Assembly: GCA_031459535.1 (NCBI GenBank)
Contig: JAVKIJ010000005.1
Span: 1-64,000, forward strand
Origin: Candidatus Fervidifonticultor quintus
GTDB taxonomy: Bacteria > Sysuimicrobiota > Sysuimicrobiia > Sysuimicrobiales > Humicultoraceae
Reading direction: 5' to 3'
DNA: 64,000 nt
In this document: positions 6,293 to 45,455 of the stretch, one piece after another
Layout of the letters: the number at the start of each line of letters is the position of its first letter
How positions within the stretch are numbered: the stretch's first letter is position 1
Position numbers and translations under genes: made by a program
The notes under the pieces: generated by a model
What the model was told of the DNA's origin: nothing
What the model saw: the letters and a program-made list of their open reading frames with translations, nothing else
Databases searched by the model: none

Positions 6293-6330
6293 GATGCTAG
6301 TGGGAGTGCGGCGCGGCTGGAATCGGGTCG

Positions 6331-6765: not shown

Positions 6766-6858
6766 GCCGAAGTACGGCGCAAACTCTCTGAAATCGTCGA
6801 GGCAGGCACAGCAAGAGTGCCTCCGCGCGACAAGATCTCTCAACCGGGAGGTGTGCGA

Positions 6859-17161: not shown

Positions 17162-17180
17162 GGAGGGAGCGATTCCCCGC

Positions 17181-20100: not shown

Positions 20101-20336
20101 CCCCGCTCCAGGTACACCTTGATCCCGCACCCCGTGTTGCACTGCAGGCAGACCGAATACAGGGTGCTCTCGGGCCGCCCGTAGGGGTACGGTGCGCCTC
20201 CCGCGGGCGCCGCTTCCGCAGGCTGTGCACGGAGCAACGTCTCGGCGATGCGGCAGTAAGCCGCCGCGCCTCCCAGAAGGGCGGCGGAGGCCAGCAGCCC
20301 GCGGCGCGTGGTCGGTACAGACGTGTGCGCTGGCAT
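17181..20336 (-). CDS. Tat-exported molybdopterin oxidoreductase catalytic subunit, TtrA/SrdA-like clade
   Basis: GAGGAGG RBS; TRRGLL Tat motif; FS0 CLQCNTGC...[41 protein letters not shown] (probable Cys ligand), [14 protein letters not shown]. Confidence 0.88.
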
Positions 20337-20349
20337 CGCAATCCCTCCT

Positions 20350-21309
20350 CTACTTCCCATGGCAGGCCTGGCAGGATGCGGGTGTGCTTACGGCCATTGT
20401 CTTGCGGGATGCCGCGCCGATGTAGTAGACCCGCGGTTCGGTCTGCGCCGATTCGTTGAGCCGCATGGGCTGCTGTTGACTCCGCAACTCGGCCACCAGG
20501 CTCTCGCGGTCGTTGGCGTCCCCGAAGTACATGGCCCCGCCGATGCAGGTGCACACGCAGGCCGGTAGCAGTCCGGCCTCGATGCGGGACAGACAGAAGT
20601 GGCACTTGCGCCCGGCACCGATGGGCAGGGCGCCGTCAACCCGGGTCCAGAGGCGGCCGTACTCCACCCTGGGACGCGTCTCATACGCCTGGAGGGCCGG
20701 CGTGCCCTGGGTCCAGTACCGGCCGTGGTCGAACGAGAGCGCACCCTTGTAGGGGCATGCCTTCGCCGCGGCCTCAAACGCCTTCCGGTTGAACTTCTCG
20801 TAATCCACGGCCACGATACCGTCGGGGCGCTTCGTGATGGCGCCGGGGCTGGCGGCGTTGGCGGCGGGCAGACACGGCGGTCTGTCGCACTGCTGGCAGT
20901 TGGTCGGCATGAACCAGGCCTCGACGTCGGGGAACGTGCCCGATTCGACCTTCGGAACCGTCCGGTACGACACCCCGGGGGGCAGGCCGTTCTCGGCGGT
21001 ACACGCGATGGTGCACGCATCGCACCCGATGCAGCGCCGGGTGTCGATGACCATGATCCACTTTCGCTGCTCGGGGGGCTTGGCGAGAGCCCGGTACAAT
21101 TCGCGCTGCATGCGGATGAGCTGGTGCTCCCCCGGCCGAGGCTCGCGGATGGCCGCCGGGGGCGCCGCGGCAGCCCGCACTCGCCGACCCGACGCCCCTG
21201 CGGAGAGCGCGCCGCCGGTGCCGATCGCCACCGCCGCCGAGACGCTCTTCTTCAGGAAGGCGCGCCGCCCCACTGCCGGCGGCGCCGGAGAAGTGCCCGT
21301 CGCACACAC
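20350..21309 (-). CDS. Tat-exported TtrB/DmsB-like Fe-S subunit (three clusters predicted) with C-terminal CxxCH
   Basis: GRRAFLK Tat motif; CIGCDACTIAC, CQQCDRPPCLPAA, KFNRKAFEAAAKACPY, KCHFC...PACVCTC; ends SCQACHGK. Confidence 0.88.
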   Translation of the reverse strand: MCATGTSPAPPAVGRRAFLKKSVSAAVAIGTGGALSAGASGRRVRAAAAPPAAIREPRPGEHQLIRMQRELYRALAKPPEQRKWIMVIDTRRCIGCDACTIACTAENGLPPGVSYRTVPKVESGTFPDVEAWFMPTNCQQCDRPPCLPAANAASPGAITKRPDGIVAVDYEKFNRKAFEAAAKACPYKGALSFDHGRYWTQGTPALQAYETRPRVEYGRLWTRVDGALPIGAGRKCHFCLSRIEAGLLPACVCTCIGGAMYFGDANDRESLVAELRSQQQPMRLNESAQTEPRVYYIGAASRKTMAVSTPASCQACHGK

Positions 21310-21367
21310 GGTCCCACCACCTCCTGCGCGATGCCCGCCTTTGAGGCCAGCCTAGTAGGTGATGTCC

Positions 21368-21997
21368 CTAGGAAGGTATAGGGTCGGTACCCGATTTGGG
21401 CGTACGGCCTGCACCGTGGGCCTTGAGGCTGCTGTAGTCCTCGGGGGTGTTGATGTTGCGGAGGGTCTCCAGGCCCGGGCTGAGCACGGCCAGCTCCGCC
21501 TCTTCGATGCGCCGGACCCGCAACTCGCCCAGCACCTCGGACATTCGGAGGCCCCCCGCCGCGAGCCGCCGCTCGAGCGCGGCCAGGGCCGAGGTCGCGT
21601 AGACTGCGTGCAGGGGATGCCATCGGCCGCCCGCCCACGGGACGACCGCGTCGTATCCACGGGCCAGCGAGGTCATCCAGGTGACCACGCCCGCCGATAG
21701 ATGCGGAAGATCGCAGGCAGCCACGAAGGCCAGGGGTGTGGCGACAGCCCGCAGGCCGGTGCAGAGGCCCACGAGTGCGGCCCGGCGCGGGTCGGCATCG
21801 GTCACGACGCGCACACCCAGGGACGCGTAGCGAAGCGGCGTCTTGGTGACGACCATCAGATCGACGCAGGCGGGGCGGAGCGCCTCAATCACGTGTCGCA
21901 CTAGGGGCAGGCCGGCGAACTCGAGAAATGCTTTGTCGCGGCCCATGCGGTGGCTGTCGCCACCGGCCAGCACGACGCCCGTGACAGCAGGAGCCAT
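21368..21997 (-). CDS. mobA: Molybdenum cofactor guanylyltransferase
   Basis: VTGVVLAGGDSHRMGRDKA, AACDLP, HPLHAVY, NINTPED. Confidence 0.93.
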   Translation of the reverse strand: MAPAVTGVVLAGGDSHRMGRDKAFLEFAGLPLVRHVIEALRPACVDLMVVTKTPLRYASLGVRVVTDADPRRAALVGLCTGLRAVATPLAFVAACDLPHLSAGVVTWMTSLARGYDAVVPWAGGRWHPLHAVYATSALAALERRLAAGGLRMSEVLGELRVRRIEEAELAVLSPGLETLRNINTPEDYSSLKAHGAGRTPKSGTDPIPS

Positions 21998-22206
21998 TGG
22001 CGCACCACGGTACCGGCTTGGGTTGCTCCTCGCGCGCACCGCCAGCATCAGCGTAGCACGGCCGGGGCCGCCGCGGCCGGGTGAGAGGCCGCCAAGTCGT
22101 CCATGCATCCATGATCGGTCGGCCACCCGATGTCCGCCAGCGGCGAGACGGTGTAGACTGCCATCGAATGCAGAAGTTTGAATACTATTCGAGTCGGAGC
22201 GCAGGC

Positions 22207-22584
22207 ATGAAGTCGCGGTTTGCAGCGGAGGCCACGATCTTGCGAGCCCTGGGCCATCCAGCCCGTCTGGCGATCCTGGAGGTGCTCCGCCACCGGCCGG
22301 CGTGCGTCTGTCATCTGACTGCGGCATTGCACCGTCCGCAGGCGTACGTCTCGCAGCAACTGGGGGTGCTGCGCGACGCCGGCCTCATCGAGGGTCAGCG
22401 AGACGGCGCCTTCGTCTACTACTACTACCGGCTCAGGAACTACGGCGTGCTTGGCATGCTGGACCTCGCCACCCGGCTTCTGGGCCGCGCACCTGAGGCC
22501 ACCCCGGCGGCGGGGCCGCTCGCCGGGTGTGAATGCCCCCAGTGCGCCGTCGGCGAGGCTCCCGCGAAAGGAGCCGGTGCGTGA
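22207..22584 (+). CDS. arsR: ArsR/SmtB-family regulator
   Basis: LRALGHPARLAIL, ACVCHL (alpha3 Cys pair), VSQQLGVLRDAGL, C-terminal CECPQC; palindrome GAATA-C-TATTC at 22180-22190 upstream. Confidence 0.88.
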   Translation: MKSRFAAEATILRALGHPARLAILEVLRHRPACVCHLTAALHRPQAYVSQQLGVLRDAGLIEGQRDGAFVYYYYRLRNYGVLGMLDLATRLLGRAPEATPAAGPLAGCECPQCAVGEAPAKGAGA

Positions 22585-23633
22585 TTACCGATCTGCTCAC
22601 CGCAGGCCTGGTAGCCCTGCGCGACTACGTGGCCCTGCACGTCTTGACCTGTCTGATCCCGGCCTTCCTGCTGGCCGGCGCCATTGTCGCCTTCGTCTCA
22701 AAGGATGCCGTCATGCAGCGACTGGGAGCGGCCGCCTCCAAGACCGCGAGTTTCTCCACCGCCGCGGGCGCCAGCTTTTTCCTCGCTGCGTGCTCGTGCA
22801 CCGTGATCCCGGTCTCTGCGGGGCTCTACTACGGGGGCGCCGGGGTCGGTGCGGCGTTCATCTTGCTGTGGGTCGCTCCGGCGTCTAACCTGTTGTCCCT
22901 CATTTACACGGGGAGCATCCTGGGTGCCACGATGGCCTGGGTACGATTGCTTGCGGCCCTGCTGATGGCGTTCGTGGTGGGATGGGTCATGATCCTGGCC
23001 TTCGGGAAGAAAGAGGTTCGGCGCGCAAGCACCCCCTCAGGCGACCCCAGGGCGCGAATCCTCAGCACGACCGATCTCGTGCTCCTGGGGCTGCTGGTCC
23101 TCTCCCTGCTGGCTCCCAACTACCTGGTCCCACGTGGCCCCTACAGTCAGAAGGTGCTGCTCTGGGCGGTGGCCACCGCAGGGGTTATGGCCTACGCCAG
23201 GTGGTTCAAGACGAAAGAGGAGATCCGCCGCTGGCTGGGCGAGACCTGGTGGTTCGTCCGGATCATCTTCCCTCTGTTGTTGCTCGGCGTCTTCATCGTG
23301 GGCGTCATCGGCGCCGCACTGCCCCGCTCGTGGATCGAAGCGTACCTCGGCGGCTCCGGACTGCGCGCCTCGTTCTTCGCGACGATGCTGGGCAGCATCA
23401 GCTATTTCGCCACGATGACCGAGGCCCCGTTCGTGCACAAGTTGCTCGGACTGGGCATGGGAAAGGGGCCGGCCCTGGCGCTACTGCTCACTGGACCGGG
23501 GTTGAGCCTCCCCAACTGGCTGGCCATCGGGCGGGTGTTCGGGGCCGCGAAGGCCGTCGTGTACGTGGGCACCATCATCGTCCTGGGCACCATCGGCGGC
23601 TGGGTGGCCGGGATGTTCGTCTTCGGTCAGTGA
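22581..23633 (+). CDS. DUF318/ArsP-family permease
   Basis: HVLTCLIPAFLLAGAI, ACSCTVIP, YFATMTEAP, GMGKGPALALLLTGPGLSLP; GTGA overlap with arsR. Confidence 0.88.
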   Translation: MITDLLTAGLVALRDYVALHVLTCLIPAFLLAGAIVAFVSKDAVMQRLGAAASKTASFSTAAGASFFLAACSCTVIPVSAGLYYGGAGVGAAFILLWVAPASNLLSLIYTGSILGATMAWVRLLAALLMAFVVGWVMILAFGKKEVRRASTPSGDPRARILSTTDLVLLGLLVLSLLAPNYLVPRGPYSQKVLLWAVATAGVMAYARWFKTKEEIRRWLGETWWFVRIIFPLLLLGVFIVGVIGAALPRSWIEAYLGGSGLRASFFATMLGSISYFATMTEAPFVHKLLGLGMGKGPALALLLTGPGLSLPNWLAIGRVFGAAKAVVYVGTIIVLGTIGGWVAGMFVFGQ

Positions 23634-33103: not shown

Positions 33104-33789
33104 TCGGCCTCGAACCGGTAGCCCACCCCTCGCACTGTGGAGATGAACGCCGGCCGGCTGGGGTCATCCTCGAGCTTCTTGCGCAGCTCCTTGATGTGGA
33201 CGTCCACGACGCGCTCGTCACCGAAGAAATCAGCGCCCCAGACGCGCTCGATGAGCTGCGCCCGGTTGAACACCAGACGCGGATGGCTGGCCAGCACCAG
33301 GAGCAGGTCGAACTCCAGCGATGTGAGGTCGACTTGGGCGTTGTCCTTCCAGACCCGGCGCTCGCCTGGATCGATGCGCAGGCGCCCCAACACCAACGGC
33401 TGAGGCCGCTCGGGCGCGCCGCGGCCGCGACGCAGGATGGCCTTGACGCGTGCCACCAGCTCGCGCGGGCTGAAGGGTTTGGTCAGGTAGTCATCGGCCC
33501 CGACGCTGAGGCCGACCACCTTGTCCGTCTCATCCGTCCGCGCCGTCAGGAGCAGGACGTACACTTGCGACCACTCGCGAAGGCGCCGCAGGACCTCAAT
33601 CCCATCTACCCCCGGCAGCATCACATCGAGGATCACCAGGTCAGGTCGGAGCTGTCGCGCCATGGCCAGGGCCGCCTCGCCATCAGCTGCCGCGTGGACC
33701 ACGAACCCCTCACGGGACAGATAGCGGGAGACGAGATCGCGCACCGACGGCTCGTCGTCGACCACGAGTACTGTGCGGCTGGATGCCAT
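33100..33789 (-). CDS. OmpR-family response regulator
   Basis: VVDDE, LDVMLP, LTA, KPF; wHTH VDVHIKELRKKL, TVRGVGY. Confidence 0.96.
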   Translation of the reverse strand: MASSRTVLVVDDEPSVRDLVSRYLSREGFVVHAAADGEAALAMARQLRPDLVILDVMLPGVDGIEVLRRLREWSQVYVLLLTARTDETDKVVGLSVGADDYLTKPFSPRELVARVKAILRRGRGAPERPQPLVLGRLRIDPGERRVWKDNAQVDLTSLEFDLLLVLASHPRLVFNRAQLIERVWGADFFGDERVVDVHIKELRKKLEDDPSRPAFISTVRGVGYRFEAE

Positions 33790-33827
33790 GTCTCCTGCAC
33801 CGAGGGTGGGCCCGAGCGCCGCGTCCC

Positions 33828-34721
33828 CTAGCGGGTCACCGTATACGGGTTCGCGCCCGGGTGCGTACCGCCTGCCCCAATGAAGATCAGGTTCGGAGAG
33901 ATCGGCGCCCCGTTCACCAGAAGGGTGAAGTGCAGCCGCCGGCCGGTGGTGCGAAAGTCCACCCCGTCGGCGTCGCCGCTCGCGGACGCCTCCCAGGCGA
34001 TCAGGCCGCGGCCGCGTGCCAACAGGTCGTCGCCTTCCAGGCGGACGCGCCCCACCTCATGAAACCGGCCGTCGGTGGACACCAGACCCGAGAGGCGACC
34101 CCACCCGCGCCCCTGCCACCGAATGTGCCACTCGTCACCATCGTGCCAGATGTAGTAGCCGAAACCGAAGAACGGCGGTTGACCGCGGTGGTGAGGCGGC
34201 CATCCCCCGCCCCCGGTCTCGCTCACGAAGACGAAGAACGGGTTGTCCGGCGGGTGGGTGCCGCGATGCCCGATGAAGATGGCGCCTGGACTGGCCAGCC
34301 TGCCGTCCATCGACAGGGCAAATCGCACCCATCCGGACGACTCCGCCAGGGTGAAGTCGAACCCCTCGGTGCCGACGGTGCGCGCGCGCCAGGTGACGGT
34401 ATTCCCGCCCCGGCGGAGCACCTCGCCGGTCTCGGCGCCCACCAGGATCAGGGCCCGGATGCCTCCGTCAGAGATGATCTCGCCGCTGAAGAGCCGGTGG
34501 ACGGCGATCGCCGTCCACCGCACATGGAAGCGGTCGCCATCGGCCCAGATGAAGTAGCCCTCGCGGGCCCAGAGGCTAGTGGACGGTGCGCCTATCGCGC
34601 TGCCGCGCGGCAGGCCCGGCTCCGACTGTGCCCCGGCCGGCAACGCGGTCAGTGCGGCCAGGGCTCCTGCTACCGCTGCTGCCGCCGCCAATCCCAGACG
34701 CTGTCGCATGCCGCTCACCAC
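33828..34721 (-). CDS. Exported protein with two tandem beta-rich repeats
   Basis: Signal peptide; GYFIWADGDRFHVRW...IFIGHRGTHPPDNPF and GYYIWHDGDEWHIRW...IFIGAGGTHPGANPY. Confidence 0.8.
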   Translation of the reverse strand: MVSGMRQRLGLAAAAAVAGALAALTALPAGAQSEPGLPRGSAIGAPSTSLWAREGYFIWADGDRFHVRWTAIAVHRLFSGEIISDGGIRALILVGAETGEVLRRGGNTVTWRARTVGTEGFDFTLAESSGWVRFALSMDGRLASPGAIFIGHRGTHPPDNPFFVFVSETGGGGWPPHHRGQPPFFGFGYYIWHDGDEWHIRWQGRGWGRLSGLVSTDGRFHEVGRVRLEGDDLLARGRGLIAWEASASGDADGVDFRTTGRRLHFTLLVNGAPISPNLIFIGAGGTHPGANPYTVTR

Positions 34722-34821
34722 CTTGCCCGTCTATGTGCACCATGTCATACGGAGGGCCCCCACGAGGCGGTTCCGAACCCTCTGAGGACAGTCTCTGGGG
34801 GTCTGGTGATGATCACCGGCG

Positions 34822-35040
34822 TTGACGATGTGGAGAGAACACCCACGCTGGGGCACCGAGAACGCGTTGATTGCGCTCGCAGACGGAGTCTATCTCGAGT
34901 TGCTGGCCGCGCGCGACCGGATGGGCAGCATATCAGCTGGCGGCTGGCGTTTGCAGACCACTGCGACCCCCCGGCGCTCATCGAAGGCGAGACGCCCCGC
35001 ACCCTGCGCGTCCCGGCACCTGTGGGGTTGAACCGGGAGA
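34822..35040 (+). pseudogene. Glyoxalase-like (VOC) gene remnant
   Basis: HPRWGTENALIALADGVYLELLA followed in another frame by PALIEGETPRTLRVP; much too short for the family. Confidence 0.55.
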
Positions 35041-35071
35041 TACGCCGCGCTGAAGTCGGCGTGCTGCGGGG

Positions 35072-35824
35072 TCAGGGTTCCGTTCGGCGGCTCGATCCTG
35101 GCAGGACCGGCGGCGTCCCTATCTTGGTGACCGAGCGACTCGGGGCGGGTTGACCACCCCCGCTGGCGCTCAGATGAGCCAGCACCGCACGGCTGGCCTG
35201 GCGCACATGATGGCGCATAGCCGCCTCGGCAGCCTGGGCGTCGCCGGCCTTGAGCGCGCGGACAACGGACACGTGCTCCTGTAGAGACGATGACAGGCGA
35301 CCGGGCAACTGCGCCGACGTACTGATGAGCAACCGGATCTGCCCGTCGAAGGACTCGGCGACCCGGGCGAGGCGGCTGTTGTCCGACGCCTGCCGCAGGA
35401 GCCGGTGGAACGCCATGTCCAGGTCCCCGTAGTGCTGCACGTCCCCCTCCTGCACGCACGCGCGCTGCTGCTCCAGCAGCCGGTCGAGGTGCGCGGCCAG
35501 CCGCTGGTTAATCCGCTGCGCCGCGCGGCTGGCGGCCAGCCCCTCGACGACCTCCCGGAGGGCGTACAACTCCTCCGCGTCCCGGGGCGTGATCTCGGGT
35601 ACGAAGTATCCCCGGTGAGGTACGGCGACGACGAGTCCCTCCCGCTCGAGTGCAGCCAGGGCCTCCTTGATCGGCGTGGGAGACAGACCCAGATCCTCGG
35701 AGAGGACCCGGACGATGAGCTTGCTGCCGGCCGGCAGCCGGCGGTCGAGGATCGCCGATCGAAGCGCCCGATAGGCCTCCCGGGACAGGGTCGTGCGGCC
35801 GATAGCCACGCGGTGACGGCGCAC
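35072..35824 (-). CDS. GntR-family regulator (FCD domain)
   Basis: AYRALRSAILD, LSEDLGLSPTPIKEAL, LYALREVVE, DMAFH, EH; GTG 6 nt after TATAGT. Confidence 0.92.
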   Translation of the reverse strand: MRRHRVAIGRTTLSREAYRALRSAILDRRLPAGSKLIVRVLSEDLGLSPTPIKEALAALEREGLVVAVPHRGYFVPEITPRDAEELYALREVVEGLAASRAAQRINQRLAAHLDRLLEQQRACVQEGDVQHYGDLDMAFHRLLRQASDNSRLARVAESFDGQIRLLISTSAQLPGRLSSSLQEHVSVVRALKAGDAQAAEAAMRHHVRQASRAVLAHLSASGGGQPAPSRSVTKIGTPPVLPGSSRRTEP

Positions 35825-35830
35825 GTCTCC

Positions 35831-35877
35831 ACTATAGCCGAACGCGTCTTGACCGGTCAAGATTTTAGATTTAGAAT
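35831..35877. promoter_or_regulatory. Overlapping divergent sigma70 promoters sharing a 16-bp palindrome
   Basis: TCTTGACCGGTCAAGA at 35847-35862; plus strand TTGACC-N17-TAGAAT (35849-35877); minus strand TTGACC-N18-TATAGT. Confidence 0.7.
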
Positions 35878-35919
35878 TCAATTTACGACCCACCCATCCC
35901 GATCGGTCAGGAGGACCCA

Positions 35920-36207
35920 GTGGCATACAGGGCGATTGCACATCGCAGGGGCGATGTCGTGGCGGTGGCCGTCGGCGACCTCAGCCCCGGCGAGACGATT
36001 CAGGTTCGCCTGCTGGACGGTTCGCCGCCGGTGACGGTCACGATCCGGGAACCGGTGCCGCTCGGGCACAAGGTCGCCCTCGCCGACCTAGTGCCCGGGC
36101 AGGACGTGATCGAATACGGCGAGCGCATCGGGCGCGCGACACAGCCCATCGTGGCCGGCGCGCACGTGCACGTCCACAACATCAAGAGCGCGAGGTGGTC
36201 GGCGTGA
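35920..36207 (+). CDS. suyA: Sulfolactate sulfo-lyase alpha subunit-like (UxaA SAF domain)
   Basis: H..GDVVAVAV.DL, VPLGHKVAL.DL, YGERIG, HVHVHNIKSARW; GTGA overlap with the next gene. Confidence 0.75.
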   Translation: MAYRAIAHRRGDVVAVAVGDLSPGETIQVRLLDGSPPVTVTIREPVPLGHKVALADLVPGQDVIEYGERIGRATQPIVAGAHVHVHNIKSARWSA

Positions 36208-37352
36208 CGCTTGTGGGCTACCGCCGTAAGGACGGCAGCGTGGGTGTCCGCAACCACGTGGTCATCCTGCCTCTGGACGACCTGTCCAACGCCGCAGCGG
36301 AGGGCGTGGGCAAGTTGATCCCGGGCACCCTTCCGCTCCCTCATCCCTACGGCCGGCTGCAGTTTGGCGAGGATCTCGACCTCTTCTTTCGCACCATGAT
36401 CGGGAACGGCGCCAATGCCAACGTGGCCGCGGTGGTGGTGATCGGCATCGAGCCCAAGTGGACGCAGCGCCTGGCCGACGGCATCGCCAGGACGGGCAAG
36501 CCGGTCGAGGCGTTCTCGATCGAGGGTGCAGGCGACCTGCGCACGGTCGAACGCGCCGCGCGCGCGGCCAAGGCCATGCTGCAGGACGCCACCGAGCTGC
36601 AGCGGGAGCCCATCGAGGTGCGGGACCTGGTGCTCTCCATCAAGTGCGGGGAGTCGGACACGACGCTGGGGGCAGCCGGAAACCCGGCGCTGGGGCGCGC
36701 GGTCGACGTGCTGCTGGACGCCGGCGCGACAGTGATCTTCGGGGAGACCTCCGAGCTGACCGGCGGCGAGCACCTGATCGCCGCGCGCTGCGCGACGCCT
36801 GCCGTGCGCGAAGCCTTCATGCGCACGTACGCCGCCTACGTGGCGTTCATCCAGTCCACGGGTGCGGACCTGATGGGTTCGCAGCCCACCGAGGGCAACA
36901 TCAAGGGCGGGCTGTCCACCATTGAGGAAAAGGCGTTGGGCAACATCCAGAAGACAGGCACGAGACCCGTGCAGTCGGTGCTGGGCCCGGCCGAGCGACC
37001 GCGCGGGCCGGGCCTCCACTTCATGGACACCTCCAGCGCCGCGGCAGAGATGATCACCCTGGCGGCGGCCGGCGGCTCGGTGCTCCACTTCTTCACCACC
37101 GGGCAGGGGAACGTGGTCGGGAACCCGATCGTTCCCGTGATCAAGATCTCGCCCAATCCCAGGACCGTGGCAGCCATGCGCGAGCACATCGATGTGGACC
37201 TATCGGAGCTGCTGGCCGGCGAGATCAGCCTGGAGCAGGCGGCCTCGCGCATCCTCGACGCGTTCGAGCGCACGGTGCGCGGTCGGTTGACCGCGGCCGA
37301 GGCACTGGCACACCGCGAGTTCGTGCTGACCAGGCTCTACCGCAGCGCCTGA
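36204..37352 (+). CDS. suyB: Sulfolactate sulfo-lyase beta subunit-like (UxaA family)
   Basis: LPLDDLSNAAAE, LPHPYGRLQFG, KCGESDTT, FMDTSSAAAEM and HREFVLTRLYRSA, recalled as SuyB-type rather than altronate/galactarate dehydratase-type segments. Confidence 0.8.
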   Translation: MTLVGYRRKDGSVGVRNHVVILPLDDLSNAAAEGVGKLIPGTLPLPHPYGRLQFGEDLDLFFRTMIGNGANANVAAVVVIGIEPKWTQRLADGIARTGKPVEAFSIEGAGDLRTVERAARAAKAMLQDATELQREPIEVRDLVLSIKCGESDTTLGAAGNPALGRAVDVLLDAGATVIFGETSELTGGEHLIAARCATPAVREAFMRTYAAYVAFIQSTGADLMGSQPTEGNIKGGLSTIEEKALGNIQKTGTRPVQSVLGPAERPRGPGLHFMDTSSAAAEMITLAAAGGSVLHFFTTGQGNVVGNPIVPVIKISPNPRTVAAMREHIDVDLSELLAGEISLEQAASRILDAFERTVRGRLTAAEALAHREFVLTRLYRSA

Positions 37353-37366
37353 TCGGGGGGTCCGCC

Positions 37367-38782
37367 GTGCAGATGTACGTGGCCGGGCAGTGGGTCGGGG
37401 GACCGCGCAGCCAGCCGGTGATCAATCCGTACGACGGCTCGGTAGTGGACACCGTGCCGCTGGCCGGGCCCGACGAGGTGGAGCGGGCGCTGGCCAGCGC
37501 CGAGCGCGGCGCGCGGGTCATGCGGCGGCTGGGCGGCTACCAGCGGTCCACGATCCTCCAGAAGGCCGCGCGCCTCCTGGAGCAGCGCGCCGAGCAGTTC
37601 GCTGCAACCATCACCCTCGAGGAAGGCAAGACCATCCGGGAAGCCCGCGCGGAGGTGGTGCGGGCTGTGGAGGTCCTGGCCCTCTCCGCCGAGGAGGCCA
37701 AACGACTGGCTGGCGAGACAGTACCGCTGGACGGCGCTCCGGGTGTGACCCAGCAGTTTGGGTTCACGATCCGGGTACCGTGCGGGATCGTGGTCGCCAT
37801 CAGCCCGTTCAACTTCCCGCTCATCCTGGTAGCGCACAAGGTAGGCCCGGCGCTAGCCGCGGGCAACAGCGTCATCCTCAAGCCAGCGACCGATACGCCG
37901 CTGTCGGCGCTACGGCTGGTCGAGGTCCTGCTGGAGGCCGGCCTCCCGGCTGAGGCGATCCAGTGCGTGATCGGCTCCGGACGCGAGATCGGTGAGCCGC
38001 TGTGCGCCGACCGACGGGTGCGCAAGATCACCTTCACCGGCAGCCGCGACGTGGGCGAGCGGATCTGCCGGGTCGCCGGCATCAAGAAGGTCACCATGGA
38101 GCTGGGGAGCAACTCACCCGTGGTCGTAATGCCCGATGCGGACCTGGAGGAGGTCGCGGGGGCCATCGCGGCCACAGGCTACAGCAATGCCGGACAGGTC
38201 TGCATCAGCGCCCAGCGTATCATCGGTTTGCGACCTATCTACGGGGACCTGATCGAGGCCTTGAAACCCAGGGTGGCGGCTATCACCACGGGCGACCCGC
38301 TCGACGAACATACGATGATGGGTCCCATGGTCAAGGAATCGGAGGCGAAGCGCGTGGAGATTTGGGTGCAAGAGGCCGTCGCGGGCGGCGCCCGCCTGGT
38401 GCTGGGCGGCGAACGCCAGGGCGCCATCTTTGCGCCCACGGCGGTGGCCGACGTGAGCCCCCGGATGCGCATCTCGTGCGAAGAGCTGTTCGGCCCGGCC
38501 GTAGCCCTCACGCCCGTCGACACCATCGATGAAGCCTTGGCGCTGACCAACAATTCACACTACGGGCTCTCGGCCGCCATCTTCACCAAGAACATCGAGT
38601 GGGCTATGCGGTATGCCAAAGAGGCCGATGCCGGCAACATCCACATCAACTGGGGACCCCAGTGGCGCGCCGACCTGATGCCCTATGGCGGCCTCAAGGA
38701 CAGCGGGTTCGGCAAGGAAGGCCCCAGGTATGCCGTGGCGGAGATGACCGAGCTCAAGATGGTGGTCATGCATCTCAAGTAG
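37367..38782 (+). CDS. Aldehyde dehydrogenase (lactaldehyde / sulfolactaldehyde dehydrogenase SlaB-like clade)
   Basis: SPFNFP, FTGS, MELGSN, NAGQVCISAQR, EELFGP, MPYGGLKDSGFGKEG. Confidence 0.9.
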   Translation: MQMYVAGQWVGGPRSQPVINPYDGSVVDTVPLAGPDEVERALASAERGARVMRRLGGYQRSTILQKAARLLEQRAEQFAATITLEEGKTIREARAEVVRAVEVLALSAEEAKRLAGETVPLDGAPGVTQQFGFTIRVPCGIVVAISPFNFPLILVAHKVGPALAAGNSVILKPATDTPLSALRLVEVLLEAGLPAEAIQCVIGSGREIGEPLCADRRVRKITFTGSRDVGERICRVAGIKKVTMELGSNSPVVVMPDADLEEVAGAIAATGYSNAGQVCISAQRIIGLRPIYGDLIEALKPRVAAITTGDPLDEHTMMGPMVKESEAKRVEIWVQEAVAGGARLVLGGERQGAIFAPTAVADVSPRMRISCEELFGPAVALTPVDTIDEALALTNNSHYGLSAAIFTKNIEWAMRYAKEADAGNIHINWGPQWRADLMPYGGLKDSGFGKEGPRYAVAEMTELKMVVMHLK

Positions 38783-38832
38783 GTCCCGGCCGCGACCGCG
38801 GCCGGACGCGAAACGCGAGGGGGGAGAAGATC

Positions 38833-40098
<1,266 letters not shown>

Positions 40099-40113
40099 CA
40101 GCGGGAGCGGCGC

Positions 40114-41052
40114 GTGACCGCGCCCTGGCTGGTCCGACCCGGGGCGGGATCGCGGGTCCTCCGCCGCTGGATGAGCGGCCAGCTCACGCAAGGTGAGCTG
40201 GCCGCGCTGCTCATTCTGCCGTGCTTGCTCTTCCTGGCGGTCTTCGCCGCCTACCCCATCGTCAACGCGGTGTGGACCGCGCTCCACACCCTGCGCCTGG
40301 ATCAGCCGCATCTGGGGACACCGTTCGTGGGGCTGCGCAACTTCGCCAAGGCCCTGGGCGACCCGGAGGCGTGGCACGCCATCCGGGTGACCTTCCTCTA
40401 CGCCGGGGTCACGGTGGCCGCCCAGTTCGCGCTGGGCCTGGCCGTGGCCCTGATCATCCACCCCATGGGGCGGGGCAGGGGGTTCGTGCGGGCCGCGGCC
40501 CTGCTGCCCTGGACCATGGCGCCGGTGCTGGCTGGGCAGATGTGGAGGTGGTTGTTCAACGACCAGGCCGGCGTGGTCAACGACCTGCTGAACCGCCTGG
40601 GGCTGATCAGCAGCCAGATCATCTGGCTCGGGGTACCAGCTCTGGCGTTCTTTGCGGTGACCGTCGCCGCCACCTGGGGCGCGGCTTCGTACATGGCGCT
40701 CATCCTGCTGGCCGGTCTCCAGGGCATTCCCGACGAGCTCTACGAAGCTGCCAGCCTGGACGGCGCCTCGCCCGTCCGATCGTTCCTCGCGGTGACGCTG
40801 CCGCTCCTGCGCCCTGCCATCATGGTCTCCCTGGTGCTCCGCACCCTGGGCGCCCTGCAGGCCCTGGACCTGCCGTTCGCCATGACCGGCGGCGGCCCGG
40901 GCAACGCCACGGAGACGTTCGCGCTCTTCATCTATAAGAACACCTTCCAGTTCCTGGACTTCGGGTACGGGGCCGCGCTCTCGGTGATCCTGGTTGTCAT
41001 CGCGCTGGCCTTGGCCGGCACGTACTACCGCGTGCTGGCCCCGCGGGACTAG
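40114..41052 (+). CDS. Carbohydrate ABC transporter permease (MalF-like)
   Basis: FVGLRNF; EAA loop LYEAASLDGA; TGGGPG. Confidence 0.93.
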   Translation: MTAPWLVRPGAGSRVLRRWMSGQLTQGELAALLILPCLLFLAVFAAYPIVNAVWTALHTLRLDQPHLGTPFVGLRNFAKALGDPEAWHAIRVTFLYAGVTVAAQFALGLAVALIIHPMGRGRGFVRAAALLPWTMAPVLAGQMWRWLFNDQAGVVNDLLNRLGLISSQIIWLGVPALAFFAVTVAATWGAASYMALILLAGLQGIPDELYEAASLDGASPVRSFLAVTLPLLRPAIMVSLVLRTLGALQALDLPFAMTGGGPGNATETFALFIYKNTFQFLDFGYGAALSVILVVIALALAGTYYRVLAPRD

Positions 41053-41054
41053 CC

Positions 41055-41888
41055 ATGGCGGGCCGACGGCGCCTCGGGGGGATCGGGCACTGGCTGCTGA
41101 TCGGCCTGGTCGTGGCGTGGTCGCTGGCGCCGTATGCCTGGACCCTGTTCACGTCGTTCAAGACCGAGCGCGAGCTCTACCAGTTCCCGGTGACCTACTG
41201 GCCGCACCGGCCGACATTCATCAACTACGCGCAGGTCTTCACCCAGAACCCGTTCGGCCGCTTCTTGCTCAACAGCGCCATCGTCACGGTGACCTCGACG
41301 GTGCTGTGCCTGTTCATCGCATCCCTGGCCGCCTATGCGTTCGCCCGGCTCCAGTTCCGCGGTCGCGAGGTGTTGCTGGTGGGCCTGCTGGTGGTGGCCA
41401 TGGTCCCGCTCATCACGGTGATCGTGCCTCTCTACATCCTGGTGCGCAACCTGGGTCTGCTCAACTCGTATGCCGGGCTCATCGCGCCGTACGTCACGTA
41501 CTCCCTGCCGGTGGCGATCTTCATCCTCGCGGCGTTCTTCCGGGAGATTCCCCCCGAACTCGAGGAAGCCGCGCTCATCGACGGCTGCACCCGGCTGAAC
41601 ACCCTGTGGCGGATCATCGCGCCGCTGGCGGCGCCGGGGTTGATCACGGCCGGGATCATCGTGTTCGTCTACACCTGGAACGAGTTCCTGGTGGCGCTGA
41701 CGTTGACCAGCACCACAGAGGTCCGCACGATCACCGTGGGGATCGCGCTCTACCGCGGCGAATTCACCTTCCCGTGGGGCGTGATCTCCGCCGCGGTGAT
41801 GCTGGCCACGATCCCGATCATGACCTTGATCCTGTTGGGCCAGCGCCTGGTCATCCGCGGACTGACGGCCGGCGCGGTCAAGGGGTAG
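41055..41888 (+). CDS. Carbohydrate ABC transporter permease (MalG-like)
   Basis: TSFK, ELEEAALIDG, WNEF, GLTAGAVKG. Confidence 0.94.
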   Translation: MAGRRRLGGIGHWLLIGLVVAWSLAPYAWTLFTSFKTERELYQFPVTYWPHRPTFINYAQVFTQNPFGRFLLNSAIVTVTSTVLCLFIASLAAYAFARLQFRGREVLLVGLLVVAMVPLITVIVPLYILVRNLGLLNSYAGLIAPYVTYSLPVAIFILAAFFREIPPELEEAALIDGCTRLNTLWRIIAPLAAPGLITAGIIVFVYTWNEFLVALTLTSTTEVRTITVGIALYRGEFTFPWGVISAAVMLATIPIMTLILLGQRLVIRGLTAGAVKG

Positions 41889-41890
41889 AC

Positions 41891-43297
41891 GTGGGCAGCT
41901 CGCAGGCGGCGGACGGCCGGCCGGGGGCCTTTGGGGGCCCGATTCGCTTGGGACTGGTCCCCATCGTGCGGCCGCTGTTCCGCGGCGCGCACATGGGCCT
42001 GGTCACCTCGAGCCGCCACGCCCTCGCCAGCCTGGCCGTGCCCCTGGGGTTCGAGCTGGCGTACGTGGCCGACCCGGTCACCGATGCCACCGAAGCCCAG
42101 GCGAGGGCCCGCGAGCTGCAGGCACGGTGGAGCGCGGGAACCCTGGACCTGCTGGTGGTCGAGCACGTCACCTTCGCCACCGGCGATCTGGTTGCCCCGT
42201 TCCTGGAGCTGGCGATGCCGCTGGGCCTCTGGGCCCTGCCCGAGGCCACCACGGAGGGCCCACTGCCGCAGAACGCCCTGTGCGGACTCAATCTCAGCCT
42301 CAGCCTGCTCACACCGCGGACGCTGCCCGTGAAGTGGTTCTACGGCGAGGCGGCAGACGCGCAGTTCCAGACGCGGCTTCGGGTGACCATCCAGGCGCTC
42401 CGCGGCGTCAGGGCCGTCCGGGAGGGACGCCTGCTCTGGGTCGGCGGGACCGCGCCCGGGTTCTATCGGCTGGAATCGCTGCCCGATCTGCCCCTGCGGA
42501 TCTACCGCCTGCCGCTGGAGGCGGCGTTCGATGCGCTGCGCCAGGTGGACGCCGCGCAGGTCGAGGAGCGGCTTGGCACCTGCGACGAGCCCACGGCCAT
42601 GGGGCGTGAAGAGCTGCGCGCCATGGTCAGGCTCGAGATCGCCCTGGAACGGCTGGCCCGGGGCTACGACGGCGTCGCGCTGCGCTGCTGGCCCGAGCTC
42701 CCCGAGCGGGCTGGCAGCATGGCCTGCGCGCCGTGTGGCCGCCTGGCCGACCGTGGGTGTCACATTGCGTGCGAAGGCGACATGGCCGGTCTGGTCTCGA
42801 TGCTGGCCACCGCCGCCGTCACCGGCCGACCGGCGGTGCTCCTCGATCTGTCCCGCAAGGACGACGACGCCCTGCTCTTCTGGCACTGCGGCAACGCGGC
42901 GCGAGCGTGGGCGGCCGGTGGCGAGACCCGTCTCGACCCACACTTCAACCGGGGCCTGCCCGCCGTGCGCCAGATGCGCCTGGAGCCCGGCCCGGCCAGC
43001 GGCCTGCGGTTCCTCGAGCACCGCCGGGCCGCGGTCTACGCCGGTCGCGTGCTCGAGCGCCCGAACGGCTACGACGGTGTCTTCGGCTGGATGGGAGAGC
43101 TGCGCTGGGCCGGCCGCGCCGTCACCGCGGAAGGGTTCCTCGCCAGCGTGCTCAACTACCGGCTGCCGCACCATCTGGTCTGGGGCAGAGGGGATGCCGA
43201 GGCCGCGCTGCTAGAACTGTGCCAGTGGCTCGGGCACGAACCGCTGGCCCCCGACCCGGAGATCACCGTGCTGAGGTGGCCCGCCCGTGGACGTTGA
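41891..43297 (+). CDS. L-fucose/L-arabinose isomerase-like protein (candidate sulfoquinovose isomerase)
   Basis: TFATG, QNALCGLN, ALRCWPE, ACEGD, FWHCG, PHH; GTG 2 nt after the permease stop. Confidence 0.78.
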   Translation: MGSSQAADGRPGAFGGPIRLGLVPIVRPLFRGAHMGLVTSSRHALASLAVPLGFELAYVADPVTDATEAQARARELQARWSAGTLDLLVVEHVTFATGDLVAPFLELAMPLGLWALPEATTEGPLPQNALCGLNLSLSLLTPRTLPVKWFYGEAADAQFQTRLRVTIQALRGVRAVREGRLLWVGGTAPGFYRLESLPDLPLRIYRLPLEAAFDALRQVDAAQVEERLGTCDEPTAMGREELRAMVRLEIALERLARGYDGVALRCWPELPERAGSMACAPCGRLADRGCHIACEGDMAGLVSMLATAAVTGRPAVLLDLSRKDDDALLFWHCGNAARAWAAGGETRLDPHFNRGLPAVRQMRLEPGPASGLRFLEHRRAAVYAGRVLERPNGYDGVFGWMGELRWAGRAVTAEGFLASVLNYRLPHHLVWGRGDAEAALLELCQWLGHEPLAPDPEITVLRWPARGR

Positions 43298-45455
43298 CCT
43301 CAATGCGCTTCGCCCGCTGGAGGACCTGTCGCTACGGTCGGCGGCTGCGGCCAGCGCGCAGCTCACCACCGAGGCCGCCGCGCTGGCGGCCGAGTGCTAC
43401 GCGCCCGGCACCTTCCGGCTCCGGTTCGCCGCCAGCCCTGACCAGGCGGGACCAGACTACGGGCTCCTGATCGCGAAACCGTCCCCTCCACCGCAAGCAC
43501 GGTTCGAGGTCGCGGGAGGCGTCTTTCGCCTGACGGCTGAAGAGGTGTCACTGGAGTTGATCCCGCGGCCGGTCCGGCTGCGGCTGGTGCGCGGCGGTAG
43601 CACGCTGCTCGAGTCCACCGGCGACGGGCACATCCGCGGCGGCCTGCGCATCCCGGCGCTCGCCACGGAGACCGGCGGCGCGGCCTGGTGGATGGCGCTC
43701 GGCCTTGGCAGCTGCGAGCCGGTCTACGGCCTGGGCGAAAAGTTCGGCCCCCTGAATCACCGCAGTCAGCTGGTCATCTCGTGGAATGAAGACGCGCTGG
43801 GCACGAACACCGAGCGGTCCTACAAGAACGCGCCGTTCGCCTGGAGCCCGCAGGGCTGGGGGGTGTTCGTCCACACCACGGCCCGCGTCCTCCACGGCGT
43901 CGGCTATCCGCAGTGGTCGCAGCGGAGCTACATCGTGCGCGTGGCGGACCCGGTGCTGGACGTGTTCCTGGTGACCGGCGCGTCGCCAGCGGAGATCCTC
44001 GAGCGCTACACCCACCTGGTCGGCCGGCCGCCGCTACTGCCCCGGTGGAGTTACGGCGTGTGGATGTCGCGGTGCTACTATCGCACAGCCGATGAGGCCA
44101 TGGAGGCCGCGCGCGGGCTGCGCGAGCGTCGCATCCCCGCCGACGTGCTCGTGCTGGACGGCCGGGCGTGGTTGAAGGTCGAGACCCGATTCGCGTTTGA
44201 ATGGGACCGCCAGCGATATCCCGATCCCGCGGCGTTCGCCCGCCAGCTCCGGGCCCTGAACTTCCGGCTGTGCGTGTGGGAGTATCCATACGTCTCGGTG
44301 CACCACCCGCTCTTCTCAGAACTGGCGAAGAAGGGCTACCTGCTGCGCACCGGCCAGGGAGACCCCTATGTCTACCAGTGGGATCCGGAACCGTTCGGCG
44401 AGTTCCTCACCCCGCTGCCGCCCAGCGGCATAGTGGACTTCACCAACCCCGAGGCCTACGCATGGTACCGGGACGCCCACCAGCAGCTCTTCGCGCAGGG
44501 CGTGGACGTCATCAAGACCGACTTCGGAGAGCAGGTCCCCGTTGATGCCCTGGCCGCCAACGGCGATGGCGGTGCACGGCTGCACAACGCCTACTCCCTG
44601 CTCTACAACCGCTGCGTGTTCGAGGCGACCGCGAAGCATGCTCCGGGCGGCGCGTTGGTCTGGGGCCGGTCGGGCTGGGCCGGGAGCCAGCGCTATCCCA
44701 TCCAGTGGGGCGGTGATCCGCAGGCCGATTGGGAAGGCCTCGCCGCCAGCATCCGGGGCGGGCTCTCGTGGGGCGCCTCGGGCGTCCCGTTCTACAGCCA
44801 CGATATCGGTGGATTCTACCATACGACGCCCGGCGCCATGCCCGATGCCGAACTCTACATCCGTTGGACACAGGCCGGCGTCATGGCATCCCATACGCGC
44901 TTTCACGGCACCAGCCCGCGGGAGCCGTGGCACTACGGCCAGGTGGCTGAAGAGATCGTGCGGCGCTGGCTCCAGTGGCGGTACCGTCTGATTCCATACC
45001 TGGAGGCGTGCGCATTCGAGGCGCACCGCACCGGACTGCCGGTGATGCGGGCGATGCCCATCGCCGTGCCCGACGATCCGGCGTCTTGGGCGTTCGAGCA
45101 CCAGTACCTGCTCGGGCCGTCGCTGCTGGTAGCACCGGTCATCGAACCTGGCGGGGTGGTGCGCCTCTACCTGCCCGCAGGCGGATGGTGCGATCTCAAC
45201 AACGGCGAGTGGTTCGAGGGGCCGGCGGTGCTGGAACGCGCCGTGCCGCTGGACAAGATGCCGGTCTACGGCCGCGAGGGACACATGTTGCCCCTGGGCC
45301 CGGTCGTCCAGCATACGGGCGAGCTGGGCGAGGGCGTTCAGCTCGAGGAGCTGTGGCTCTTTGGGACGCCGCAGGTAGGGGTAGCGTGGCCCGACCTGGC
45401 CATCGAGCCGGACCTGCGCGGGGTGCCTCCAGGCGTGCGCGTCTGGCGCTGGTAA
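43287..45455 (+). CDS. GH31 alpha-glycosidase (YicI-like motifs)
   Basis: YGLGEKFG, YKNAPF, nucleophile IKTDFGE, acid/base WGGD, SHDIGGF, RFHG..PREPW. Confidence 0.92.
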   Translation: MDVDLNALRPLEDLSLRSAAAASAQLTTEAAALAAECYAPGTFRLRFAASPDQAGPDYGLLIAKPSPPPQARFEVAGGVFRLTAEEVSLELIPRPVRLRLVRGGSTLLESTGDGHIRGGLRIPALATETGGAAWWMALGLGSCEPVYGLGEKFGPLNHRSQLVISWNEDALGTNTERSYKNAPFAWSPQGWGVFVHTTARVLHGVGYPQWSQRSYIVRVADPVLDVFLVTGASPAEILERYTHLVGRPPLLPRWSYGVWMSRCYYRTADEAMEAARGLRERRIPADVLVLDGRAWLKVETRFAFEWDRQRYPDPAAFARQLRALNFRLCVWEYPYVSVHHPLFSELAKKGYLLRTGQGDPYVYQWDPEPFGEFLTPLPPSGIVDFTNPEAYAWYRDAHQQLFAQGVDVIKTDFGEQVPVDALAANGDGGARLHNAYSLLYNRCVFEATAKHAPGGALVWGRSGWAGSQRYPIQWGGDPQADWEGLAASIRGGLSWGASGVPFYSHDIGGFYHTTPGAMPDAELYIRWTQAGVMASHTRFHGTSPREPWHYGQVAEEIVRRWLQWRYRLIPYLEACAFEAHRTGLPVMRAMPIAVPDDPASWAFEHQYLLGPSLLVAPVIEPGGVVRLYLPAGGWCDLNNGEWFEGPAVLERAVPLDKMPVYGREGHMLPLGPVVQHTGELGEGVQLEELWLFGTPQVGVAWPDLAIEPDLRGVPPGVRVWRW

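Follow-up and report, generated by a model that had tools for sequence, protein, structure and literature searches.

A candidate operon for complete catabolism of a sulfosugar glycoside in Candidatus Fervidifonticultor quintus

The DNA analysed here, called the window below, is a stretch of 64,000 nucleotides (positions 1 to 64,000 of contig JAVKIJ010000005.1, GenBank assembly GCA_031459535.1) from Candidatus Fervidifonticultor quintus, and our subject is a gene cluster at positions 35072-45455 which we read as a candidate operon for the catabolism of a sulfosugar glycoside. The window corresponds to contig C84 of a metagenome-assembled genome (MAG; G000) of 3.1 Mb in 138 contigs, 88.9% complete and 5.2% contaminated, and its GC content is about 68%. 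Among named organisms, the closest are hot-spring MAGs of Candidatus Fervidifonticultor, whose records are labelled Armatimonadota or Candidatus Sysuimicrobiota. In the cluster, a gene on the minus strand for a GntR/FCD regulator of the FadR subfamily (Pfam GntR and FCD; open reading frame (ORF) 35072-35941, likely start GTG 35824 or 35809) is divergent from eight tightly packed genes on the plus strand, with overlaps or short gaps throughout. The first two, suyA (35920-36207, 95 residues, Pfam SAF) and suyB (36195-37352, 385 residues, Pfam GD_AH_second and GD_AH_C), overlap by 13 nt and encode the putative small and large subunits of a sulfolactate sulfo-lyase. After a gap of 14 nt comes a gene for an NAD(P)-dependent aldehyde dehydrogenase (ALDH; 37367-38782, Pfam Aldedh, 509 bits), and after a further 50 nt the gene for the substrate-binding protein of a CUT1-type sugar ATP-binding cassette (ABC) system (38833-40098, Pfam SBP_bac_1; ORF open from 38599), whose start at ATG 38833 is backed by a Shine-Dalgarno site and a signal peptide. 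Two permease genes, UgpA/MalF-like (40114-41052) and MalG/UgpE-like (41055-41888), both recognised by Pfam BPD_transp_1 and by NCBIfam, lead to the gene for a protein of 468 residues (41891-43297, GTG start, 2 nt past the permease stop) which the NCBIfam model SftI and the predicted fold mark as a FucI/AraA-fold isomerase. This gene overlaps by 11 nt the last one, for a YicI-like alpha-glycosidase of glycoside hydrolase family 31 (GH31; 43287-45455, Pfam GH31 domains). The original prediction, made from the letters of the DNA, had described this tight run divergent from a GntR gene, and every gene was recovered in its place; it had also noted that the cluster lacks genes for an aldolase, transaldolase, transketolase or kinase, and none was found within 35072-45455. 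The junction of the ALDH and binding-protein genes (38443-39125) is spanned with zero mismatches by a contig of a DNA run from the same study (X3, not flagged as the source of the window). Contigs from an RNA library (run X4, with depth in 29 of 30 bins) were discounted as evidence of transcription, because they come partly from related strains and DNA carry-over is possible. A hairpin after the ALDH gene is ordinary for its base composition (z = -1.58) and was dropped as a special element, and terminator-like matches inside genes were treated as noise.

The SuyAB pair has a two-subunit layout, in which a SAF-domain small protein and a GD_AH (UxaA C-terminal) large protein are encoded side by side. 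The large subunit is 62.4% identical to SuyB of Cupriavidus pinatubonensis and 58.5% to the protein of Paracoccus versutus, and SuyA is 45% identical to the small subunit of the C. pinatubonensis hpsN-hpsO-suyAB locus. When the large subunit was searched with tblastn against 72,556 plasmids, the matches were bimodal: a small group from Rhodococcus, C. pinatubonensis, Caballeronia, Sinorhizobium, Methylobacterium and Paracoccus lies at 58-63.5% identity, and all others are at or below 40%. Within the close group, the C. pinatubonensis match belongs to an annotated locus with the order hpsN, hpsO, a major facilitator superfamily (MFS) transporter, a dehydrogenase, and the small and large subunits, presumably the layout of the characterised 2,3-dihydroxypropane-1-sulfonate (DHPS) pathway of strain JMP134, while the P. 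versutus match is accompanied by a GntR regulator gene in divergent orientation and, downstream, by a gene of the sulfate-exporter family. These contexts point to sulfolactate metabolism. In a maximum likelihood tree of 17 sequences, the SuyB proteins of the window, Thermaceae, C. pinatubonensis, P. versutus and Rhodococcus koreensis form a clade with support 100/100 and a stem of 1.66, which leaves out the UxaA-family proteins encoded as split pairs in Bacillus sp. F19 and Haloferax, as well as UxaA and GarD of Escherichia coli. Between SuyAB and UxaA/GarD, a choice which the original prediction had left to phylogeny, the tree and the two ranges of identity favour SuyAB, and by its place in the tree the window protein is a true SuyB ortholog. 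The closest plasmid-borne relative of the window suyB (63.5%) lies on a plasmid of R. koreensis (L086, 247201-255570), in the order GntR, suyA, suyB, ALDH, MFS transporter, NAD(P) oxidoreductase, hydroxyacid dehydrogenase and Ldh-family oxidoreductase; judged by its genes, this actinomycete locus appears to be a complete cluster for DHPS/sulfolactate desulfonation.

For the isomerase, there is no match in Pfam and no sequence match in the PDB, and its sole NCBIfam match is the sulfoquinovose isomerase model SftI (NF048012; 89-91 bits, E 2.5e-25). An AlphaFold model built from a 17-sequence alignment (predicted local distance difference test 92.1, predicted template modelling (TM) score 0.91) was compared with solved structures using Foldseek, which returned L-arabinose isomerases (TM score 0.77, E 5e-20) and L-fucose isomerases (TM score 0.67-0.69) at 12-16% identity. 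Because of these structure matches, the protein is predicted to be an aldose-ketose isomerase of the FucI/AraA fold, and because it remains below the cut-off of its only family model, it is a distant relative of SftI/SqvD placed outside that family. Thus the fucose-isomerase fold of the original prediction stood, with SftI as the only family match. A second and weaker match to the SftI model (39.7 bits) was observed in G000 at C129, 6826-8028, and indicates another gene of the FucI/AraA family.

The GH31 protein scores 397 bits with YicI versus 171 bits with YihQ, and comes near the NCBI alpha-xylosidase model (516 bits, cut-off 606). Its catalytic residues are D412 (KTDFGE) as nucleophile and D477 (WGGDP) as acid/base, equivalent to D416/D482 of YicI and D405/D472 of YihQ. 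The Bacillus-type (YihQ) sulfoquinovosidase of the original prediction was not borne out: the enzyme is YicI-like instead, and the YihQ sulfonate motif is absent. A profile search of G000 with the YihQ model returned only the GH31 of the window. At the site of C307 and F308 in YicI, which we take to set xylose specificity, all 12 cluster-linked copies read G-R-A inside LDGRAWL; they also have a conserved TR eight residues further on and an inserted loop ending in LTP (LSQ in one copy). The cluster-linked enzymes thereby possess extra conserved arginines, R293 and R301, together with T375, in the C307/F308 loop and the inserted loop. Among homologs, taken as the 150 best representative clusters (145 aligned, the five longest left out), R, R and T occur at all three positions in 10 of the 145, which are among the closest relatives. 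In addition, 94 genomes of the phylum contain 15 GH31 copies of at least 65% identity, of which the 11 readable ones all have the motif, and six copies of 42-48% identity, of which two are readable and neither has it. On these alignments the LDGRAWL..TR motif appears to be specific to the cluster-linked GH31 copies. A possible counterpart is SqgH (WP_014951134.1), a GH31 sulfoquinovosidase of Alteromonas macleodii placed next to subfamilies 3 and 6; it shares 27.9% identity with YihQ, lacks the Q/E-RWY motif and has the predicted binding residues R302/T377/K412/F513 (PMC12780224). The window enzyme has R301 (or R293), T375, K410 and F510, alike in kind and spacing when compared by published residue numbers only, so that it is possibly similar to SqgH. 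Named sources of a DGRAW-type GH31 are Limnochorda pilosa, Rhodospirillales MAGs and the red algae Galdieria partita and G. sulphuraria, with the annotation alpha-xylosidase in the algae; the copies in the thermoacidophilic Galdieria hint at horizontal transfer into a eukaryote.

The aldehyde dehydrogenase and the importer are less specific in their signals. The best NCBIfam match of the ALDH is the Methanocaldococcus-type lactaldehyde dehydrogenase model (480 bits, cut-off 650), and the motifs ELGSNSP and GQVCISAQR are visible, presumably with the catalytic Glu and Cys. It is not close to the sulfolactaldehyde dehydrogenases of the GabD/SlaB type, which corrects a detail of the original prediction. 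The binding protein belongs to a TMBP-like group, its PDB matches being MalE3 (352 bits), TMBP (292 bits) and, third-best, SmoF (251 bits), which binds sulfoquinovosyl glycerol; it retains the sugar-binding residues D67, D113, W276 and R345, which are common also to MalE3 and TMBP. The two proteins are compatible with the use of a sulfosugar and provide no argument for it. The operon has no ATPase gene for the importer, which we take as encoded elsewhere, and no transporter for a C3 sulfonate. Because of the latter, the substrate of SuyAB must come from the imported sugar.

An alignment-based scan with one genome per species gave 66 loci with relatives of the isomerase, from Fervidifonticultor and allied MAGs, Meiothermus, Calidithermus, Deinococcus and many Trueperaceae (mostly Deinococcota), and 64 of them were scored, two having no isomerase match at the coverage filter. 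The window-type order of GntR, suyA, suyB, ALDH, binding protein, two permeases, isomerase and GH31 recurs in L002, L056, L108, L109 and L110 with 64-91% protein identity, the ALDH gene keeping its position in each of them. Since the same order is found in other genomes labelled Sysuimicrobiota or Armatimonadota, it is not a chance juxtaposition. Among loci with at least 1.2 kb downstream, a PfkB kinase gene directly follows the isomerase gene in 51 of 59; six of the other eight have GH31 there, which is the type of the window (L001-L004, L007 and L056), and L043 and L048 have neither. The kinase and a DeoC/LacD-family aldolase are both present in 34 of the 49 loci with at least 4 kb downstream. 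The best solved relative of the Meiothermus kinase is the sulfofructose kinase YihV of E. coli (38% identity, 133.8 bits vs 96.7 for the next), and the aldolase of the relatives passes the NCBI tagatose-1,6-diphosphate aldolase subfamily model (233 and 215 bits, cut-off 184), being nearer to solved LacD (about 116 bits) than to YihT (58 bits). On the other side of the transporter genes, suyB lies upstream in 19 of the 42 loci with at least 7.5 kb there, and in 18 of these 19 a 2-hydroxyacid dehydrogenase and an Ldh_2 protein are encoded between suyB and the binding-protein gene. The Ldh_2 protein has the L-sulfolactate dehydrogenase ComC as best NCBIfam match (194 bits, below the cut-off), and the clusters of Thermaceae have suyAB plus ComC/SlcC-like dehydrogenases. 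Thus synteny in relatives, to which the original prediction had looked for a check, adds three kinds of protein to the cluster: a kinase resembling YihV, an aldolase of the LacD type and dehydrogenases resembling ComC/SlcC. Moreover, a cluster on plasmid pDEIPE01 of Deinococcus peraridilitoris DSM 19664 (L122, 88886-101607) has genes for a GabD-like ALDH and a GntR regulator divergent from those for a binding protein, two permeases, an 'L-fucose isomerase', a PfkB kinase, a 'tagatose 1,6-diphosphate aldolase', a DGRAW-type GH31 and an AEC-family transporter, and by gene content this set, which lacks SuyAB, would cover every role of a sulfolactate-excreting sulfo-EMP (Embden-Meyerhof-Parnas) pathway. 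The plasmid cluster is flanked by insertion sequence elements and an integrase, and its RefSeq gene names are those of neutral-sugar genes. The MAG of Candidatus Fervidifonticultor sextus (L001) has the genes from binding protein through GH31 with 94-98% protein identity to the window and a genome without SuyB. Its similarity (6300-7000) to the window (38783-38832) stops just past the ALDH stop, at the GC-rich hairpin CCGGCCGC-GACC-GCGGCCGG, with other genes upstream, which looks like a strain-level gain or loss of the suyAB-ALDH module.

The spacer between the GntR gene and suyA carries divergent sigma-70-like promoters and a candidate operator (35849-35877). Its two -35 boxes are the two arms of a 12-nt perfect palindrome, TTGACCGGTCAA (35849-35860), which is abutted by a 17-nt AT-rich element, GATTTTAGATTTAGAAT (35861-35877), overlapping the -10 box of suyA. 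The palindrome occurs once in the window, and L002, L056 and L109 have it in their own spacers between GntR and suyA. In degenerate form, GATTTWRGATWTARRAT, the 17-mer occurs once in the window, in none of 100 shuffles, and once in each of 17 loci (L002, L008, L010, L011, L013, L015-L017, L020, L021, L024-L027, L049, L062 and L109). In every locus checked, by reading the spacer or by comparing gene coordinates, it sits between GntR and suyA, and this holds for the phylum of the window and for the Thermaceae. Hence the regulator, the operator and both halves of the cluster travel together, and the conservation of the element across two phyla suggests that the whole cluster moved horizontally between them. 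GntR orthologs occupy the same position in the relatives, and the 17-nt element is probably the GntR operator, as far as its placement and conservation tell. Orthology of this GntR to the regulator of Paracoccus suyAB was considered and rejected.

Considering these features together, we put the probability at roughly two in three that the cluster is a GntR-repressed operon by which a 6-sulfo sugar glycoside is completely catabolised, the likeliest substrate being sulfoquinovosyl glycerol or sulfoquinovose. All steps of the pathway are derived from homology and gene context. The glycoside would be imported by the CUT1 ABC system (the binding protein, the two permeases and an ATPase encoded elsewhere), the YicI-like GH31 would free the sulfosugar, and the isomerase would turn the aldose into a 6-sulfo-ketose. 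An enzyme outside the operon would then split the ketose into a C3 glycolytic unit and sulfolactaldehyde, either a single TalC/FSA-type enzyme, as in the transaldolase-dependent pathway (sulfo-TAL), or housekeeping PfkB kinases with a class I aldolase, as in sulfo-EMP. Finally, the ALDH would oxidise sulfolactaldehyde to sulfolactate, which SuyAB would cleave to pyruvate and sulfite. By such a route all six carbons would become available to the cell, and the sulfur would be released with no need for a partner organism. Worded more broadly, the likeliest function is conversion of a sulfosugar glycoside to pyruvate-level carbon and sulfite, by a variant of the known systems of sulfoglycolysis plus desulfonation. 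The union of upper sulfoglycolysis with SuyAB in one operon, the core of the original prediction, is backed by the SuyB clade, the SftI match and fold of the isomerase, and the kinase, aldolase and dehydrogenases of the relatives, and we regard it as supported, not proven. Textbook sulfoglycolysis is a relay of two organisms, the first of which, as primary degrader, excretes a C3 sulfonate for the second to desulfonate, and for this reason an operon joining uptake, glycosidase and isomerase to SuyAB matters. The compact operon and its fuller version in cultured Meiothermus and Calidithermus (isolates with the cluster include M. taiwanensis DSM 14542, M. granaticius and C. chliarophilus DSM 9957) make the single-organism question directly testable in thermophiles that live under cyanobacterial mats rich in sulfolipid. 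Furthermore, the cluster points to a new family of sulfosugar isomerases, to a GH31 subfamily which annotation pipelines now label alpha-xylosidase, and to a C6-cleaving step in the lineage of the window that is encoded outside the operon. A 2026 review (PMC13436972) states that, apart from the oxygenolytic routes, no single organism has been demonstrated to catabolise sulfoquinovose completely. Our full-text search, in which Sysuimicrobiota was not a term, found no link of sulfoquinovose catabolism to Meiothermus or Armatimonadota: judged by titles and abstract openings, the papers listed deal with lipids or with community surveys.

Several observations weigh against this proposal. The isomerase scores far below the SftI equivalog cut-off (89 vs 700 bits). 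The sulfonate motif Q/E-RWY of YihQ (Q288, R301, W304 and Y508 in E. coli; PMC12780224) is absent from the window GH31, which reads R281/E299/F302/F510 at these positions, and the match to SqgH rests on residue numbers, not on the SqgH sequence. The solved sulfolactaldehyde dehydrogenase 8c54 ranks tenth among the PDB matches of the ALDH (293 bits), and orthology to the suyAB-linked ALDH of Rhodococcus was rejected at only 31% identity. The sulfonate pocket of SmoF, Gln12-Ser43-Gly166-Thr220, reported as poorly conserved outside Rhizobiales (PMC8940949), is only partly kept in the binding protein: in a phmmer alignment to 7nbz S43 is S, G166 is A and T220 is T, with Q12 outside the alignment. 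The sugar module is also found without SuyAB, since G001, with sugar-module proteins 94-98% identical, has no SuyB at E <= 1e-50, and G067 and G082 carry only 40% SuyB paralogs, with nothing relevant in the flanks of their loci. There is a gap in stereochemistry, too. As given in reviews, sulfoglycolysis yields (S)-sulfolactate and SuyAB takes the (R)-form (PMC13436972), and the SlcC/ComC pair is a sulfolactate racemase that feeds SuyAB (PMC9594981, PMC12421959); the window operon has no ComC/SlcC pair, and G000 contains only Ldh_2 homologs of 30-34% identity. The DhpA-SlaB-SuyAB route of Desulfovibrio DF1 was described with racemic substrates (PMC6278857), and in a word search of that paper 'racem' occurs only among chemicals and references, and 'enantiomer' and 'stereo' are absent.

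The cleavage of C6 to C3 adds to these difficulties. The operon has neither the dedicated kinase and aldolase genes of sulfo-EMP nor the transaldolase gene of sulfo-TAL. With the queries used, no LacD-type aldolase was found in G000 (at the completeness given above), G001-G004, G013, G031 or G034 (the last three 91-96% complete); it is present in the cluster in G005, elsewhere in the genome in G067 (57% identity) and as a weak match in G082 (36%). The Meiothermus PfkB query gives only weak matches in G000 (27-32% identity, C66 and C35), which, read from the matches with no family search, look like 2-keto-3-deoxygluconate (KDG) kinase and ribokinase. G000 has a class I aldolase-like gene on C68, unlinked to the operon, and its only TAL_FSA gene (C35, 39305-40033), for a short TalC/FSA-type protein that passes TIGR00875, sits among housekeeping genes, between rho and genes on the argS side. 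The genome search for SqvA- and aldolase-type homologs, which the original prediction had outlined, thus returned only unlinked genes: weak PfkB matches, one aldolase-like gene and one TalC/FSA gene. In L111 the kinase is kept and the aldolase is gone, and L112 has neither, a pattern that suggests stepwise loss with housekeeping enzymes taking over and is equally compatible with a transaldolase route. Judged by family matches, there are two candidates for the cleavage, the TalC/FSA-type enzyme of the housekeeping set and the class I aldolase-like protein. A bolder and tentative view, which we consider less probable than its opposite, is that the lineage of the window (family f1, Sysuimicrobiota) has a new route that splits the 6-sulfo-ketose without a dedicated kinase, aldolase, transaldolase or transketolase and uses SuyAB without the ComC/SlcC racemase. 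In that case the split might be made by a housekeeping TalC/FSA-type enzyme or by a wholly new activity. If true, this would be the most compact gene set known for complete sulfosugar mineralisation by one cell, in which the GH31 sulfoglycosidase would represent a new subfamily and the isomerase a new family.

Three other explanations were weighed against sulfoquinovose catabolism. The same pathway logic might act on another 6-sulfo sugar, such as sulfofucose (6-deoxy-6-sulfo-D-galactose), which would give a sulfotagatose-type ketose. The tagatose-1,6-diphosphate aldolase match of the relatives, closer to LacD than to YihT, and a GH31 that is not of the YihQ type are in its favour, but aldolases of the LacD type show poor discrimination among ketohexose bisphosphate diastereomers, the sulfofructose kinase YihV is the nearest solved relative of the kinase, and the isomerase has sulfoquinovose isomerase as its sole family match. 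A sulfofucose pathway coupled to SlcC/ComC-SuyAB does exist in Paracoccus (PMC12421959), but sulfofucose is reported only twice in nature by the same source and sulfoquinovose is very abundant in phototroph mats, so that we regard this substrate as unlikely.

Alternatively, two unrelated modules might share one transcript, a module that takes up, hydrolyses and isomerises a neutral, xyloside-like alpha-glycoside and a C3-sulfonate module of ALDH and SuyAB fed from elsewhere. This would agree with a GH31 nearest to the alpha-xylosidase YicI, with the sugar module of G001, G067 and G082 that is without SuyAB, with the lack of dedicated cleavage enzymes in the window lineage, and with Rhodococcus, where a GntR-suyAB-ALDH module stands alone with an MFS transporter. 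However, two phyla show the modules joined in one and the same order, with different linkers (ALDH or ComC/SlcC-like dehydrogenases) and a conserved regulator and operator, there is no C3-sulfonate transporter in the operon, and the kinase of the relatives is YihV-like. Moreover, neutral-sugar catabolism has no need of the GabD-like ALDH and the exporter that are added in the Deinococcus cluster, and the cluster-linked GH31s have G-R-A in place of the C307/F308 of YicI. We consider an accidental union of this kind quite unlikely. Finally, it is very improbable that the split UxaA-type pair is a sugar-acid dehydratase of a hexuronate- or aldonate-like pathway (in the relatives an isomerase, reductases, a dehydratase, a KDG-type kinase and an aldolase). 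In favour of this reading, Pfam gives the pair the domains of altronate and galactarate dehydratases, hexuronate genes are commonly under GntR regulators of the FCD type (with a weak match to the ExuR model here), and in Bacillus sp. F19 a fucose-type oxidative cluster for sugar use includes a split pair of the UxaA family. Against it, the window protein falls inside the 100/100 SuyB clade and not with UxaA, GarD or the pairs of Bacillus and Haloferax, its identity is at most 40% to those proteins versus 58-63% to the clade, and in the relatives the Ldh_2 partner is ComC-like and the kinase YihV-like, not KDG-kinase-like.

The flanks of the operon are unrelated to it: upstream lies a two-component system, and downstream, in convergent orientation, a gene for a SufS-like class V aminotransferase. 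As a source of the cleavage enzyme they were rejected, the neighbours being the two-component system and genes for cysteine-desulfurase-like, HerA-like, AroM and M28 peptidase proteins, and the farther flanks were likewise set aside, since they hold an unrelated molybdoenzyme cluster and a peptide ABC system. The molybdoenzyme cluster (15377-22327, minus strand) encodes a molybdopterin oxidoreductase of 1059 residues and a 4Fe-4S subunit and adjoins a MoeA-MobB fusion and a MobA-like gene, and is followed by an ArsP-type permease gene (22533-23633). Between the response regulator and the GntR gene, about 1.3 kb (33783-35153) contain only putative ORFs that match no family, one of 456 residues on the plus strand (compared with Pfam) and one of 297 residues on the minus strand (compared with NCBIfam).

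The pathways sulfo-EMP, sulfo-EMP2 and sulfo-TAL, hybrid clusters, and SuyAB are already known (PMC9594981). The clusters of the relatives of the window follow the logic of sulfo-EMP (E. coli yihQRSTUV) and sulfo-EMP2 (SqvD-SqiK-SqiA): their isomerase has the FucI fold, as in sulfo-EMP2, their PfkB kinase shares 38% identity with YihV, and their aldolase is of class I and the DeoC/LacD family, as in sulfo-EMP, though it is LacD-like and not YihT-like. The window itself differs from both in having no kinase and no aldolase, an isomerase distant from SftI/SqvD and a glycosidase that is not YihQ, and in a product that would be desulfonated by the same operon, not excreted. It is closer in outline to the Bacillus sulfo-TAL pathway (SftI/SqvD, SftT/SqvA, SlaB), with a FucI-family isomerase and an aldehyde dehydrogenase and without a kinase or aldolase, and the short TalC/FSA-type protein of G000 belongs to the same broad family as the sulfofructose transaldolases; however, no transaldolase gene lies in or near the operon, and Bacillus excretes sulfolactate. 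The pair of about 95 residues (SAF) and about 385 residues (GD_AH) is like SuyAB of Paracoccus pantotrophus and C. pinatubonensis JMP134, and the divergent upstream GntR-family regulator is like that of P. versutus, whereas the window pair heads an operon for sugar uptake and glycoside hydrolysis rather than a DHPS (hpsNOP) or sulfolactate-uptake locus, and unlike the known SuyAB loci the operon has neither an exporter (SuyZ/TauE) nor a ComC/SlcC gene. As for the glycosidase, SqgH homologs are reported from marine gammaproteobacteria with the oxygenolytic sulfo-SDO pathway (Nat Commun 2025, PMC12780224), whereas the named members of the subfamily to which the window GH31 belongs come from Rhodospirillales MAGs, Limnochorda and Galdieria. 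The nearest precedent for the overall logic is Paracoccus wurundjeri, in which a tandem of sulfofucolytic Entner-Doudoroff and SlcC/ComC-SuyAB pathways, called unusual by its authors (mBio 2025, PMC12421959), couples sulfosugar cleavage to SuyAB desulfonation with release of sulfite in one organism, as we propose here. Its upper part is of the Entner-Doudoroff type (dehydrogenase, lactonase, dehydratase and aldolase) and acts on sulfofucose, encoded in a proteobacterial region of 24 genes in which the sulfolactaldehyde dehydrogenase is described as unidentified (PMC12421959), whereas the upper part predicted here is isomerase-based and is found in thermophilic Sysuimicrobiota and in Deinococcota, within a single compact operon.

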